Shown here in pieces: positions 452 to 4,817 of a stretch of 64,000 nt of DNA. Position 1 is the first letter of the stretch. The number at the start of each line of letters is the position of its first letter. The translations under genes were made by a program, and so were the position numbers. The notes under the pieces are model-generated. The model was given only the letters and a program-made list of their open reading frames with translations. It was not told where the DNA came from and did no database searches. Source of the DNA: Escherichia coli (GTDB taxonomy: Bacteria; Pseudomonadota; Gammaproteobacteria; Enterobacterales; Enterobacteriaceae); the NCBI RefSeq assembly GCF_024298765.1, contig NZ_CP101210.1, one strand, 5' to 3'.

Positions 452-2848
452 ATGCACGAAAAGAACATCGCCCTGCTTTGTGATGAAGCCGACCGACTTT
501 TGCAACTGAACATTAATCTGCTCCGGCAAATGGTTGAGGAGCCAGATGTGTTATCTGACAGTAAGAACGAAAACAGACTGCTTTTTGATAAACAGAAAGC
601 ACTGAAAAGAATTGAGGAGCTGGAGGGCGAACAAATCAAAACCGCCCGCAGGGAGATGGTGCTGGCTGTTGTCGGCACGATGAAAGCAGGCAAATCAACC
701 ACCATCAACGCCATTGTGGGGCAGGAAATTCTGCCTAACCGTAACCGCCCCATGACCTCTGTACCGACGCTCATCCGCCACGTTCCCGGAAAAACTGAGC
801 CGGTTCTCCATCTGGAACATATTCAGCCTGTCCGCAATTTATTAATCACACTGCAGGAAAAACTCGCCACCCCGGCAGGACAGCAGGTCGCACAGACCCT
901 GCAGCAAACCGGGGATACCCGCGAACTGCTGGATATTCTGACGGATGATGGCTGGCTCAAAAATGAATACCACGGGGAGGAGGAAATCTTTACCGGACTG
1001 GCATCGTTAAACGATCTGGTTCGTCTTGCTGCGGCAATGGGGACTGAATTTCCTTTTGATGAATACGCAGAAGTGCAGAAACTGCCGGTGATCGACGTGG
1101 AATTCAGCCATCTGGTGGGGATGGATGCATGCCAGGGAACACTCACACTGCTGGATACCCCCGGCCCTAATGAGGCCGGACAACCGCAGATGGAAGTGAT
1201 GATGCGGGATCAACTGCAGAAAGCCTCTGCGGTTCTGGCTGTGATGGATTACACCCAGATGAACTCAAAAGCGGATGAAGACGTCCGTAAAGAGCTTAAT
1301 GCCATTGCTGACGTATCAGCCGGCCGCCTGTTTGTACTGGTCAATAAATTTGATGAGAAAGACCGCAATGGCGATGGGGCAGATGCCGTACGCCAGAAAG
1401 TTCCGGCAATGCTGAACAGCGATGTGCTGCCCGCCTCCCGCGTTTATCCCGGATCCTCACGCCAGGCATACCTGGCTAACCGTGCGCTTCATGAGTTACG
1501 GAAAAACGGAACCCTTCCTGTTGATGAAGCCTGGGTCGATGATTTTGTCAGGGAAGCCTTCGGTCGCATGAAAAAAGATTACGTCTGTAAAGACAGCGAA
1601 CTGGCAACTGAAGGGGCGACAGACCTGTGGGAAGGCTCACTTATCGATCAACTGATAACGGAAGTCATACTGAGTTCACACTCCAGAGCGGCGGCACTGG
1701 CGGTTGATTCTGCTGCCGCAAAACTGATGCAGAATGCAGAAAATGTCAGCGAATATCTGTCATTACGCCATCAGGGGCTGCAGCAAAGCATTCAGTCACT
1801 GCAGGCGAATATCACCAGCCTGCTTGCGGATATCCGGAAAATCGCGGACTGTCAGGAGCAGGTGACCGCTGATGTCAGAATGGCCATGGAGGAGATCGAT
1901 GCCAGAACCCGGGAATTACTGACGGGGGTCTGCACCTCACTGGAAGAGGAGCTGAATGACTATTTCAGAACTGGTAAACGCAAAGAACAGCAAATGTTGG
2001 AGGAAGAAGACGCAGAACAACGAAGGTCCCGGTCCGGATTATGGGGAAAGATTTCTCAATGGTCCGGTATCAACAACCCGGGCTGGGAAGATTACAGGAA
2101 ACGAGACTTTGACCCGGAAAACCCCGAGATAACACTAAATAATCGTAGGGAAGCAATTGAATATATAGAGGAAATTGAGTCAACTGTGACCAGCCTGCAC
2201 CGTGAGGCTGAAGCACAGTTCCGGCCTGAGCTGGAGAAAATCGTCAGCGGGATTGAAACAGGTTTTCGTGGCACGGCCCTGTACGCCACAGAAAACATTG
2301 CCGGTCGCATCAATGCCCGCCTGGAGGATGAGGGCTTTACCGTAAAAATCAGTTTTCCGGCAGTCAGTCAGTTACAGACCCGGCTCGCGGTAAAAACAAA
2401 TCTGAGTGCGCTTATGGAGGAAAGAACGGAGACCGTCACCCGTCGCCGTCGGCAGAGTGGCGTATGGGGAACCGTTTGTCGATGGTTTGGCACCAGTGAC
2501 CTGGGCTGGGAAAACTATGACGAGGATGTGAGTCGCAGCGTGATCAATATCAACAAGGTCAGAGAGGAAGTTATGTCACTGACCCGGGCATATTTCGGGG
2601 AGCTGCAGGCATCCATTGAGCAGGATATTAACCAGCCCGTCCGCCAGGAAATCGATGCCTTTTTCTGCGCATTCAGGGAGAAAGTTGAACAACTGCGTAA
2701 CACGCTGATTCAGAGCTCTGAAGATCATAAACGCGATCAGCAGGCACAGGAACGGCTTACCGGGAGACTTCAGGCATTAAATGAAAGGGTTCCTGAGCTC
2801 ATTACTGACAGTAAGGCGCTGAGGGAAGAGCTGGAGACAATGCTGTGA
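452..2848 (+). CDS. Dynamin-like GTPase (bacterial dynamin-like protein family), 798 aa
   Basis: P-loop GTMKAGKST (G75-S82, nt 674-697), LLDTPGPNE switch motif, NKFD G4 motif, long helical C-terminal region; RBS AGGAAGG at 439-445. Confidence 0.85.
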   Translation: MHEKNIALLCDEADRLLQLNINLLRQMVEEPDVLSDSKNENRLLFDKQKALKRIEELEGEQIKTARREMVLAVVGTMKAGKSTTINAIVGQEILPNRNRPMTSVPTLIRHVPGKTEPVLHLEHIQPVRNLLITLQEKLATPAGQQVAQTLQQTGDTRELLDILTDDGWLKNEYHGEEEIFTGLASLNDLVRLAAAMGTEFPFDEYAEVQKLPVIDVEFSHLVGMDACQGTLTLLDTPGPNEAGQPQMEVMMRDQLQKASAVLAVMDYTQMNSKADEDVRKELNAIADVSAGRLFVLVNKFDEKDRNGDGADAVRQKVPAMLNSDVLPASRVYPGSSRQAYLANRALHELRKNGTLPVDEAWVDDFVREAFGRMKKDYVCKDSELATEGATDLWEGSLIDQLITEVILSSHSRAAALAVDSAAAKLMQNAENVSEYLSLRHQGLQQSIQSLQANITSLLADIRKIADCQEQVTADVRMAMEEIDARTRELLTGVCTSLEEELNDYFRTGKRKEQQMLEEEDAEQRRSRSGLWGKISQWSGINNPGWEDYRKRDFDPENPEITLNNRREAIEYIEEIESTVTSLHREAEAQFRPELEKIVSGIETGFRGTALYATENIAGRINARLEDEGFTVKISFPAVSQLQTRLAVKTNLSALMEERTETVTRRRRQSGVWGTVCRWFGTSDLGWENYDEDVSRSVININKVREEVMSLTRAYFGELQASIEQDINQPVRQEIDAFFCAFREKVEQLRNTLIQSSEDHKRDQQAQERLTGRLQALNERVPELITDSKALREELETML

Positions 2849-3750
2849 CTTCACCATTTATTCAACAAATTGCTGATAACCGGGTATGTCAGGTACTCAC
2901 CTGTCTTCCTGAAAAATTTGTGGTTGATTTCGCAAACGGAATCGATGTTGCACAGGAGCATATCCGCACGGCCAGAGAGCGCACGTTCTTCCGGCGTTTA
3001 AAAGAGGGACTGACCGGCGAAGGCGCTGCACGGCAGAATGCCATCAATGCTTCGCTTGCACAGGGCGTTGAGGCGTCCCTGCGCTGGCTGACGGAGCTGA
3101 CAACGTCACTTGCCACCACAAACTACGCGATTACCCGGGTAAACGACAGGGTCAGTTCACTGGTCAGTGATACTGCCAGGCTGGCGCATTATTCCGCAGA
3201 TACACGGGAGCAGTTACTCATCCTGGCCGATCAGGTTCACCATAAACTGAATCATCTTGAAGAAAAACTCCACCGTGTTGACCAGGTTCAGCGGGCGCAG
3301 TTACATCTTGAGCAGATATTCTCATGGTGGAGCGCCGGGCGATACGCGTCATTTTCCCCTGCCGGACGTTGTTATGTGGCACTTGAAGAGCTTCGCTGGG
3401 GCGCGTTTGGTGATGTGATACGTCAGGGCGAAACAGGCCAGGTTAACCAGCTACTGGATATTCTCAGACATAAAGCATTAACGCAGATGGCACAGGAGAG
3501 TGGCGGTAGTGCAACCGTGCGTCTGAACACTCTGGACTGGCTTGGTGGTCAGGGCCGGGAGCAGGCAGATAACGAGTGGCATGACGCGATTAACTGGCTG
3601 GGAGACTGGTGCAGTGAAGAGCAGCATCCGGTGATCTGGTCAACCACGCAGGCTGCAGAACACTTACCGGTTCGCATGCCTCGCCTCTGCTCTGCAGAAC
3701 GCCTCTCTGAAAGTATGGTCGATGAAATATTTCAGAAGGGGGCTGCATGA
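2845..3750 (+). CDS. Hypothetical protein, 301 aa, translationally coupled between the dynamin-like GTPase and patatin genes
   Basis: GTG start at 2845 overlaps upstream stop (GTGA); its stop overlaps the downstream ATG (ATGA at 3747-3750); no recognisable catalytic motif. Confidence 0.7.
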   Translation: MTSPFIQQIADNRVCQVLTCLPEKFVVDFANGIDVAQEHIRTARERTFFRRLKEGLTGEGAARQNAINASLAQGVEASLRWLTELTTSLATTNYAITRVNDRVSSLVSDTARLAHYSADTREQLLILADQVHHKLNHLEEKLHRVDQVQRAQLHLEQIFSWWSAGRYASFSPAGRCYVALEELRWGAFGDVIRQGETGQVNQLLDILRHKALTQMAQESGGSATVRLNTLDWLGGQGREQADNEWHDAINWLGDWCSEEQHPVIWSTTQAAEHLPVRMPRLCSAERLSESMVDEIFQKGAA

Positions 3751-4817
3751 GTACAGAAATGAAAACGGGGCTGGTGCTGTCCGGTGGCGGGGCGGTGGGC
3801 GCTTATCAGGCGGGAGTGGTTAAGGCACTGGCAGAGTGTGGTACACAGATCAGCATGGTTTCAGGGGCCAGCATTGGCGCATTCAATGGTGCCATTATCG
3901 CGGCCTCTCCCGATCTGTCAGAAGCTGCCGTACGCCTGGAGGCGCTCTGGGATCATCTGGGGAATAATCAGGTGCTGTCGGTAAACAGATTGGTTTACTT
4001 TTCATTGCTGAAAAAACTGCTCCCGGCCATGAACCTCTGCCAGCTCCCCGGACGTGCGGGCGCACTGCTTACGACGCTTCTTCACCATATATCGACAATC
4101 AACAGGTTTGACAATCTGATGACTCAGCCGTTGTTGTCAGATGGGCCCCTGACAGTGCTGATGGATCATTATCTTGATACTGATGATCTGGCTGACGGGC
4201 TACCGTTGTATGTGTCGCTGTACCCCACGGAAGGGGGAATGCAGGATATTATCGACTGCATTCGTGCTGAACTGGGTACCGGAACTACAAAAAACTCCGT
4301 TTTTCAGCATATCCAGAGCCTGCCCCACGGGCAGCAGAAAGAAGCCTTACTGGCGTCAGCAGCACTGCCCCTGCTGTTCCGTCCCCGTGAGGTACAGGGA
4401 AAAATGTACGGTGATGGTGGTATGGGCGGATGGCAAAATATGCAGGGGAATACCCCTGTGACGCCACTGGTGGATGCCGGATGCAATATGGTGATTGTGT
4501 CGCATCTGAGTGACGGTTCTTTATGGGATCGCCGGGCTTTTCCGGACACCACAATCCTTGAAATCCGTCCCCGGAAAAAGCTGAAACAAACAGGGGAAGA
4601 AGGCAAAAGTGGCGGTCTGCTCAGTTTTACATCGGCACATATCGACACCTGGCGTCAGCAGGGCTATGAAGACACGATGCTGGCGATGGAGCATATCCGG
4701 AAACCACTGGAGGCGCGTCAGGCACTGACCCGGTCAGAGGCGGTGTTGCAGAAAAGTCTGGAGAAAACGGAAGAGGCAGATTTGGCACTGAGAAACGCGA
4801 TGGCCCGGATTAAATAA
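3747..4817 (+). CDS. Patatin-like phospholipase, 356 aa
   Basis: Gly-rich oxyanion motif SGGGAVGAY, GxSxG nucleophile motif GASIG (Ser42, nt 3870-3872), DGG motif YGDGGMGG (Asp223, nt 4413-4415). Confidence 0.85.
   Translation: MSTEMKTGLVLSGGGAVGAYQAGVVKALAECGTQISMVSGASIGAFNGAIIAASPDLSEAAVRLEALWDHLGNNQVLSVNRLVYFSLLKKLLPAMNLCQLPGRAGALLTTLLHHISTINRFDNLMTQPLLSDGPLTVLMDHYLDTDDLADGLPLYVSLYPTEGGMQDIIDCIRAELGTGTTKNSVFQHIQSLPHGQQKEALLASAALPLLFRPREVQGKMYGDGGMGGWQNMQGNTPVTPLVDAGCNMVIVSHLSDGSLWDRRAFPDTTILEIRPRKKLKQTGEEGKSGGLLSFTSAHIDTWRQQGYEDTMLAMEHIRKPLEARQALTRSEAVLQKSLEKTEEADLALRNAMARIK

Follow-up and report, generated by a model that had tools for sequence, protein, structure and literature searches.

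Our analysis of a 64,000-nucleotide stretch of Escherichia coli DNA (contig NZ_CP101210.1 of RefSeq assembly GCF_024298765.1; the whole stretch is referred to as the window) identified a three-gene operon at positions 452-4817 as a strictly conserved mobile unit, which unites an RdcA-like dynamin-family GTPase (gene 1), an RdcB-like putative adaptor (gene 2) and a patatin-like lipase (gene 3), and which is sister to the core-genome pair rdcAB. The families of the individual parts, patatin suicide effectors as a concept, the RefSeq annotation of an identical triad (dynamin family protein, diguanylate cyclase regulator RdcB family protein and patatin-like phospholipase family protein) and one mention as a putative defence system were already known; the conserved unit and its sister relation to rdcAB are new. 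Judging from the sequences, we see an even chance that the triad is a mobile conflict module in which a GTPase/RdcB-like switch licenses a cytoplasmic suicide lipase, most likely in an abortive-infection type of defence directed at phages or at other elements that invade the cell. An earlier annotation made from the letters of the window (hereafter, the sequence-only reading) had proposed a candidate defence or membrane-attack operon. The coupled and conserved arrangement, the invariant catalytic residues and the mobility reported below agree with that proposal, and the defence role itself is what we still infer.

The three genes are inherited as one unit

All three genes lie on the + strand. 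Open reading frame (ORF) calling placed gene 1 at 452..2848 (798 aa, ATG start), gene 2 at 2845..3750 (301 aa, GTG start) and gene 3 at 3747..4817 (356 aa, ATG start), which is exactly the compact operon of the sequence-only reading, with 4-bp stop/start overlaps at both junctions (GTGA at 2845-2848 between genes 1 and 2, ATGA at 3747-3750 between genes 2 and 3). A YjcZ alignment scan of one genome per species (100,044 species) yielded 79 loci, which were then analysed by tBLASTn and ORF calling. Scan loci, together with loci reached via patatin homologues, gave a non-redundant set of 34 loci in which the YjcZ protein is closer to gene 2 than to RdcB. A patatin gene follows directly 3' of the YjcZ gene in 34/34 of these gene-2-like loci, with junctions mostly of -4 or -1 nt, and a dynamin-like gene stands directly 5' in 33/34; in the remaining locus (L023), the contig begins at the YjcZ gene. 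The three-gene synteny is therefore conserved in other genomes. The gammaproteobacterial hosts are Escherichia albertii, Pantoea, Erwinia, Budvicia, Serratia, nine Pseudomonas lineages, Vibrio vulnificus, Marinospirillum, Allochromatium, Thiodictyon, Thiorhodospira (Chromatiaceae are among the hosts) and HdN1, and the betaproteobacterial hosts belong to six genera (Macromonas, Aquaspirillum, a Comamonadaceae isolate, Paenacidovorax, Gallionella and Yanghanlia).

RdcB-like YjcZ proteins were found in 46 loci, all from Enterobacteriaceae and all with rdcA. None of the 46 has a patatin gene, and the 14 rdcAB-type loci inspected lack a conserved third ORF coupled to the pair. In a neighbour-joining tree, the YjcZ proteins fall into two clean clades, one patatin-linked and one patatin-less (the Enterobacteriaceae-only rdcAB clade); the tree is midpoint-rooted, and the direction of patatin loss or gain is not read from that root. 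Beta- and gammaproteobacteria are interleaved within the patatin-linked clade, which is indicative of horizontal transfer. Across 28 loci, the pairwise identities of one protein rise and fall with those of the other two (Pearson r 0.81-0.86), and hence the genes travel together without shuffling.

The YjcZ family as a whole is small; an exhaustive profile search of 1.84 billion proteins returned 491 representatives. Two distant members (L107 and L109) are also found in dynamin-YjcZ-patatin triads. A third (L108) is a DUF3944-YjcZ fusion (7001-8599) followed by an orthologous patatin 39% identical to gene 3, with no dynamin gene within 7 kb upstream. This occurrence of YjcZ and patatin without a dynamin gene points to YjcZ as the direct partner of the lipase, and the three variants together mark YjcZ-patatin as the tightest pair of the system. 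We rejected the swapping of effectors, as every non-rdcAB YjcZ locus with sufficient 3' sequence has a patatin (L106 is too short). Natural YjcZ+Patatin and Dynamin+Patatin fusions in E. coli (77-99% identity) were taken as deletion or frameshift artefacts and not as evidence of interaction, and so was the rdcA-rdcB fusion of L110. In some E. coli, the latter type (L110 and L111, from Logan assemblies, at the E. coli yjdM-proP locus) is a 438-aa in-frame fusion of the RdcA N-terminus and the RdcB C-terminus, and seems to be an allele of the core rdcAB that arose by internal deletion.

Relation to the core pair rdcAB

Gene 1 is 34% identical over 748 aa to RdcA of E. coli K-12 (YjdA/CrfC, b4109; BLASTP E 3e-122). 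The NCBIfam CrfC model spans residues 1-797 with 567 bits and does not reach its equivalog cutoff of 1146, hence the RefSeq label is just 'dynamin family protein'. Gene 2, in which the sequence-only reading had recognised no motif, is in fact a clear member of the Pfam family YjcZ (PF13990, E 6.3e-71) and is 31% identical to K-12 RdcB (YjcZ, b4110; E 7e-39). Since gene 1 is a paralogue of RdcA and gene 2 belongs to the RdcB family, the closest characterised relative of the triad is RdcA/RdcB and not DynA or the Eleos/LeoABC system, which had been cited earlier in connection with phage resistance.

RdcA is a soluble protein that forms dimers and binds RdcB; it also binds the diguanylate cyclase DgcE at its MASE1 domain, upon which DgcE is activated (Pfiffer et al. 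2019, PMC6510439). An RdcA K82A variant that binds no GTP is functional and a T103D variant is inactive, from which it follows that nucleotide-free RdcA is active and GTP is inhibitory; RdcB may be a GTPase-activating protein or a nucleotide-release factor (PMC6510439). The likeness to the triad is threefold. A full-length GTPase homologue is followed by a coupled YjcZ-family gene in the same order and with a 4-bp overlap; residues K82 and T103 of RdcA correspond to K81 and T102 of gene 1; and in RdcA/RdcB there is a precedent for a separate enzyme being bound and switched on by a GTPase and its YjcZ partner. There are also differences. The triad has an obligatory patatin and is mobile on islands and plasmids, whereas rdcAB resides at the yjdM-proP core locus without a coupled third gene, and the triad clade reaches over beta- and gammaproteobacteria, while rdcAB is limited to Enterobacteriaceae.

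The RefSeq name of gene 2 implies a role in cyclic di-GMP and biofilm signalling, in which the operon would be an extra, island-borne RdcA/RdcB modulating DgcE. The full-length homology to both proteins and the shared gene order and overlap speak for such a role. However, the identities are just 31-34%, the CrfC score is far under its cutoff, the YjcZ tree separates the two clades, and no core rdcAB-type pair was recovered in the Pseudomonas, Vibrio, Chromatiaceae and betaproteobacteria that host the patatin-linked clade. An obligatorily linked and catalytically intact lipase would also be left unexplained. Because of this clade structure, host range and obligatory lipase, we give the signalling role very little credence.

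Catalytic and structural features of the three proteins

Gene 1 matches Dynamin_N of Pfam (E 1.6e-17) and carries the four GTPase motifs, viz., G1 (GTMKAGKST, residues 75-83), G2 (T102), G3 (DTPG, 235-238) and G4 (NKFD, 298-301). Across 29 orthologues of gene 1, the P-loop G75-T83 (including K81), T102, DTPG235-238, N298 and D301 are invariant. Gene 3 is a member of the Patatin family (PF01734, E 1.1e-24) with an oxyanion GGG at residues 13-15, a GASIG motif with the nucleophile Ser42 and a DGG motif with Asp223, and here too GGG13-15, G40-x-S42-x-G44 and D223-G224 are invariant in 33 patatin orthologues. The signatures quoted for the two enzymes in the sequence-only reading, with K81, S42 and D223 numbered as they are here, were all recovered at their places, and the structural comparison below places gene 3 in the patatin fold. 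The invariance of catalytic residues in both the lipase and the GTPase shows that both enzymes are under selection for catalysis.

Besides its GTPase motifs, gene 1 has an Arg/Trp-rich motif (RRRRQSGVWGTVCRWFGTSDLGWENY) at residues 664-689 (nt ~2441-2518), with the consensus RxRRxSGxWGtvCxWFxTdDWGWExY, which is kept in most patatin-linked dynamin-like proteins but is degenerate in RdcA. A second, weaker and degenerate copy was found at residues 524-548 of the E. coli protein (nt ~2021-2095), and the consensus over both copies is RRxRxSGxWGxxxxWxGxxxxGWExY. Going by its residues, the motif could be a peripheral membrane-binding or partner-binding element. Gene 2 was modelled as all-helical (predicted local distance difference test score, pLDDT, 81; predicted template modelling score 0.84) and has no solved structure related by sequence in a PDB search; on this model, it has the look of an adaptor and not of an enzyme.

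The AlphaFold2 model of gene 3 (pLDDT 80) comprises a patatin core (residues 1-275), a hydrophobic insert of low confidence (~75-130) and a single C-terminal helix of ~60 residues (296-355), the first turns of which are conserved. Its best Foldseek matches are PlpD, CapV/CapE of CBASS (anti-phage signalling based on cyclic oligonucleotides), VipD and ExoU, and also patatin (probability 1.00), and the sequence similarity to VipD is confined to the first ~60 residues (E 5e-6). Genes 1, 2 and 3 (maximum 19-residue Kyte-Doolittle means 1.16, 0.96 and 1.52) all lack a signal peptide and a transmembrane segment, and no hydrophobic segment was found in gene 1; all three proteins are thus cytoplasmic or peripheral.

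Truncated patatin alleles (~200-260 aa) occur in many E. coli lineages, including O157:H7 FRIK920 and O104:H4 C227-11. They are among the homologues P0017, P0045, P0077, P0081 and P0091, and some of them carry the wrong annotation 'ferredoxin reductase'. An insertion sequence (IS) of the IS21 type breaks the triad in strain E5. Taken together, the truncated alleles and the interruption suggest frequent decay of the cassette.

Structural neighbours such as ExoU, VipD and PlpD raise host-directed virulence as an explanation, with the patatin as a secreted cytotoxin, and so does the location of the operon in the pathogenicity island at aspV (PAI-aspV) of B2 strains and strains of the extraintestinal pathogenic E. 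coli (ExPEC) type. Yet the lipase lacks a signal peptide and an autotransporter domain, no secretion system adjoins it, and it is always coupled to two cytoplasmic partners. The operon is also present in the probiotic strain Nissle 1917 and in free-living Gallionella, Allochromatium, Thiodictyon and Macromonas. Given free-living hosts and no secretion features, virulence seems to us a highly improbable function of the triad.

Comparison with known systems

Eleos (formerly 'Dynamins'; LeoA plus LeoBC) consists of two or three consecutive dynamin-like genes and confers a P-loop-dependent defence (Millman et al. 2022, 10.1101/2022.05.11.491447). It shares a dynamin-family GTPase and, at some loci, a defence-island location with the triad, but has neither a YjcZ protein nor a lipase. 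As a measure of defence association, the Leo-type dynamin operon is given 60% co-localisation by Millman et al. Membership of Eleos was rejected, as the triad has a single dynamin-like gene, the PADLOC LeoBC model reached 18.9 bits (E 1.6e-4) with no stretch passing, and LeoA was not matched. CapV/CapE, which share the patatin fold with gene 3 and rank high among its structural matches (PDB 9jeh, 8zr9 and 9ion), are cytoplasmic suicide lipases that degrade the membrane of their own cell once activated. We nevertheless rejected a classification as CBASS, since there is no CD-NTase (cGAS/DncV-like nucleotidyltransferase) or other nucleotide cyclase among the ORFs of positions 1-9000, the NCBIfam CBASS_lipase model gave 18.3 bits against a cutoff of 200, and the PADLOC effector match was weak (E 1.6e-4). 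The activator of CapV/CapE is a cyclic nucleotide, whereas a protein GTPase complex is proposed here, and gene 3 differs further by its distinctive 60-residue C-terminal helix.

The Legionella patatin VipD is switched on by the binding of Rab5. VipD has been solved in complex with this GTPase (PDB 4kyi), in which respect it resembles the arrangement proposed for gene 3; it is, however, a secreted effector whose site of action is a eukaryotic host, and the GTPase that activates it is of the small Ras-like kind. Bacillus subtilis DynA and Nostoc bacterial dynamin-like protein (BDLP) share with gene 1 the dynamin GTPase domain with G1-G4. BDLP (PDB 2j68) is also the sole PDB sequence match of gene 1, the similarity being that of the P-loop region (residues 66-116), but no paddle or transmembrane segment was found in gene 1 by hydropathy. 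DynA, in addition, is a housekeeping gene without a partner lipase.

Mobility and genomic neighbourhood

A 4.6-kb segment with the triad is present at >=80% coverage (at least 80%) in 2444/5426 complete E. coli genomes (about 45%), with up to 5 copies per genome. The cassette also occurs on 45 plasmids, and a 63%-identical variant is spread across plasmids of Klebsiella, Enterobacter and E. coli. An origin from phages was rejected, with 0 matches in 50,697 GenBank phages and none in PHROGs; IMG/VR gave 1 match among 2.9 million contigs, located at a contig edge and with a truncated patatin. In its gene order, the window itself matches the right end of the pathogenicity island at aspV in E. coli of the B2 type (Nissle 1917, the avian pathogenic E. 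coli (APEC) O2-211 and strain 104).

The triad has hypervariable flanks, and no family from the 244 neighbour ORFs is shared by more than 5/34 loci. Three WYL/BrxR-type regulator families, taken as a group, are represented within a few kb in 13/34 loci, and other recurrent neighbours are integrases, transposases and a facultative fourth gene. Several independent loci adjoin genes of known defence systems, viz., BrxR and an ADP-ribosylglycohydrolase (L003), WYL and BREX brxL/pglZ (L004), McrB, WYL and PDDEXK (L006), type I hsdRMS with Mrr and BrxR (L089), and a Snf2 helicase with a ZacB-like pair (L010 and L044). The defence association is given here as counts of loci, and the PADLOC neighbour scan covered 10 large neighbour proteins of the 244 neighbour ORFs. 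The accessory-island context described in the sequence-only reading is borne out for the window, with its CP4-type island, YeeU/CbtA pair, antirestriction genes and IS remnants. A defence-island context is seen at those loci with restriction-modification, BREX, McrB or WYL/BrxR genes, but not at L097 and other loci that have no defence neighbours.

The facultative fourth gene (~235-274 aa) lies directly 3' of the patatin gene in five lineages (L003:9090-9428, L010:9034-9840, L020:8993-9730, L044:9004-9828 and L089:11090-11797) and is absent from the window. Its product has a soluble N-terminal domain and a hydrophobic C-terminus, with a weak match to NCBIfam PRK10236, and the DUF3944 part of the L108 fusion is homologous to it (E 2e-20).

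Mobility bears on two further explanations. In the first, the dynamin-like protein and the lipase would maintain or remodel membranes, repairing or reshaping the inner membrane in the manner of DynA, with lysophospholipid aiding fusion or fission; the effect on phage would then be delayed lysis and not suicide. Gene 1 is a genuine dynamin-family GTPase with invariant motifs, and its conserved basic and aromatic motif could bind membranes. DynA-type protection is also favoured in the transcriptomic study discussed below (PMC12922286), and induction in a lysogen would be compatible with a protective response. On the other hand, RdcA, the closest characterised relative, is reported to be soluble and to regulate a partner enzyme rather than to remodel membranes, a hydrophobic paddle or transmembrane segment was not found in gene 1, and the proteins closest to the lipase in structure are toxins and suicide effectors. 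Housekeeping repair also does not predict patchy horizontal spread, hypervariable flanks, carriage on plasmids or an association with WYL/BrxR regulators. We therefore regard membrane remodelling as unlikely.

The second explanation is addiction or competition between mobile elements, in which a lipase toxin is restrained by genes 1 and 2 and thereby stabilises the carrier element or excludes competitors. It could account for the position of the cassette in CP4-type islands beside CbtA/YeeU and antirestriction genes, for its presence on IncF and other plasmids beside ccdAB, for as many as five copies in one genome and for its absence from phages. However, a 798-aa GTPase with a 301-aa partner would be unusually elaborate as an antitoxin, and no feature of the instability type (a labile small antitoxin) is evident. 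The mechanism overlaps with that of a conflict module with a licensed suicide lipase, and the sequence does not separate the two; on balance, we consider addiction improbable.

Putative regulatory signals of the operon

A candidate sigma-70 promoter (341..370, + strand; TTAATA, 18-nt spacer, TATCAT) lies 80-110 nt 5' of the ATG of gene 1, a position that fits. An operator-like array at 353..394, assigned to neither strand, holds three ATCGATCGTTA / AACGATCGTTT copies with the palindrome CGATCG in each. The repeat search (family D1, inverted pairs I2-I6) returned them as (A/T)CGATCGTT copies with palindromic arms at 353-363, 371-381 and 384-394, so that the repeats overlap the -10 hexamer of the candidate promoter and then run on past it. 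Hence, of the promoter with operator-like palindromes annotated earlier, the palindromes are confirmed by the three CGATCG repeats, but the promoter is a weak consensus match (9/12). The array is kept in E. albertii (L008, with three CGATCG copies) and is absent 5' of the triad in all 26 other lineages examined. Being confined to Escherichia (E. coli and E. albertii), it is indicative of a lineage-specific regulatory site and offers no pointer to a universal regulator. In other genera, a WYL/BrxR-type regulator gene is often found near the triad instead of the CGATCGTT array.

A Shine-Dalgarno sequence AGGAAGG, read from the sequence (438..444, + strand), stands 7 nt ahead of the ATG of gene 1. 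At the other end of the operon, the predicted terminator after gene 3 was found as an intrinsic-terminator-like, GC-rich hairpin followed by TTTTT (4834..4858, + strand), with a stem at 4837-4853 of 7 pairs, 5 of them GC.

A GTPase-gated suicide lipase as the proposed mechanism

For the triad as a conflict module, we propose the following course of events, in which the contacts between the proteins, the trigger, the lipid target and substrate and the defence phenotype are what we infer. A repressor bound to the promoter-overlapping CGATCGTT repeats would hold the operon low until prophage or phage cues induce it. The gene 1 GTPase would bind the helical RdcB-like gene 2, by analogy with RdcA-RdcB of K-12, and the pair would hold or license the lipase, probably via gene 2 and via the long, conserved helix at the C-terminus of the lipase. 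A trigger would then alter the state of the GTPase, for which the loss of GTP (by analogy with RdcA), a membrane cue and a phage-derived cue are candidates. Oligomerisation at the inner membrane, possibly via the Arg/Trp motif at residues 664-689, would activate the lipase, and Ser42 and Asp223 would hydrolyse inner-membrane phospholipids, with growth arrest or cell death as the outcome. Such an abortive-infection logic would resemble that of CBASS-CapV, except that a protein GTPase would be the gate; VipD-Rab5 is a structural precedent for this.

The literature offers expression evidence in the form of an RNA-seq study (PMC12922286, 2026). The triad genes were strongly induced in a lysogen, in a Kapi1-dependent manner, and a five-gene cluster of island 8 was the most induced of all; the authors considered these genes a putative dynamin phage-defence system with ~30% identity to RdcAB. 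Another report (PMC13182975) mentions the triad genes just in passing. No functional study of the triad was found in the literature searched, and only PMC12922286 discusses it. The sequence-only reading had not recognised the pairing of a dynamin-like GTPase with a patatin as a described system. This holds insofar as neither a PADLOC model nor a functional study was found, but the pairing had already been flagged by PMC12922286 as a putative defence system.

Several observations weigh against the conflict module. The data of PMC12922286 are confined to expression. The triad has no model in PADLOC-DB 2.0.0 and is filed there under no system, with only the weak LeoBC and CBASS phospholipase effector matches (both 1.6e-4), and scans of the three proteins against NCBIfam and PHROGs gave no system-level or phage-family match. 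The triad is very common in E. coli, and yet it is found in no systematic defence screen of the literature searched; it could have been tested without a phenotype or could be toxic to clone. L097 and several genome loci have ordinary neighbours, and 5/10 of the large neighbour proteins had no PADLOC match. The common truncated patatins fit a dispensable accessory gene and give no direct support for defence. The GTP logic of RdcA is carried over, as an analogy, from a 34%-identical paralogue with a different partner, and the number of sigma-70-like sites around the operon is not above the shuffle expectation.

If the triad is such a conflict module, nearly half of the sequenced E. coli (including Nissle 1917, APEC and ExPEC) and plasmids of Klebsiella and Enterobacter would carry a conflict or immune system with a new activation logic, in which a large GTPase instead of a cyclic nucleotide gates a membrane-destroying lipase. 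It would be a bacterial parallel to GTPase-activated patatins such as VipD-Rab5, and would provide an evolutionary and mechanistic frame for RdcA/RdcB (CrfC), the biochemical role of which is still debated. A more far-reaching version seems to us less likely than not. In it, the triad would be a new class of abortive-infection system whose GTPase/YjcZ switch senses the GTP state, and the long-puzzling core RdcA/RdcB, which regulates biofilm formation via DgcE, would be its domesticated derivative that lost the lipase and was rewired to a diguanylate cyclase.

Other features of the window

Upstream of the operon, the window begins with the 3' end of a YeeP/YfjP-type small GTPase gene (1..234, + strand), a 77-aa ORF that is the 5' neighbour of the triad and not a part of the conserved cassette. 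It matches the C-terminus of an intact 349-aa protein of E. albertii (L008:3341-4387; Era/Der/small_GTP models), and in this B2 lineage, the gene is split into two ORFs annotated as hypothetical. A homologue was found near the triad in 3/34 loci only. The gene may be a member of the cluster of five genes reported to be induced together in lysogens of E. coli MP1.

Downstream of the terminator are three small ORFs on the + strand, at 4907-5413 (168 aa), 5460-6098 (212 aa) and 6500-6985 (161 aa). Each has an N-terminal hydrophobic, signal-peptide-like segment, and all three are hypothetical proteins in RefSeq, with no match in NCBIfam. They are followed by a CP4-type block (DUF905, DUF932, antirestriction, RadC/JAB, DUF987 and YeeU/CbtA), within the backbone of which the YeeU/CbtA type IV toxin-antitoxin pair is located at 10558-11356, and then by IS remnants. 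The island ends at tRNA-Asp (aspV, 16618-16694), after which the core genome continues with dnaQ, rnhA, an rrn operon (~24.8-30 kb) and metNIQ, on to rpsB.

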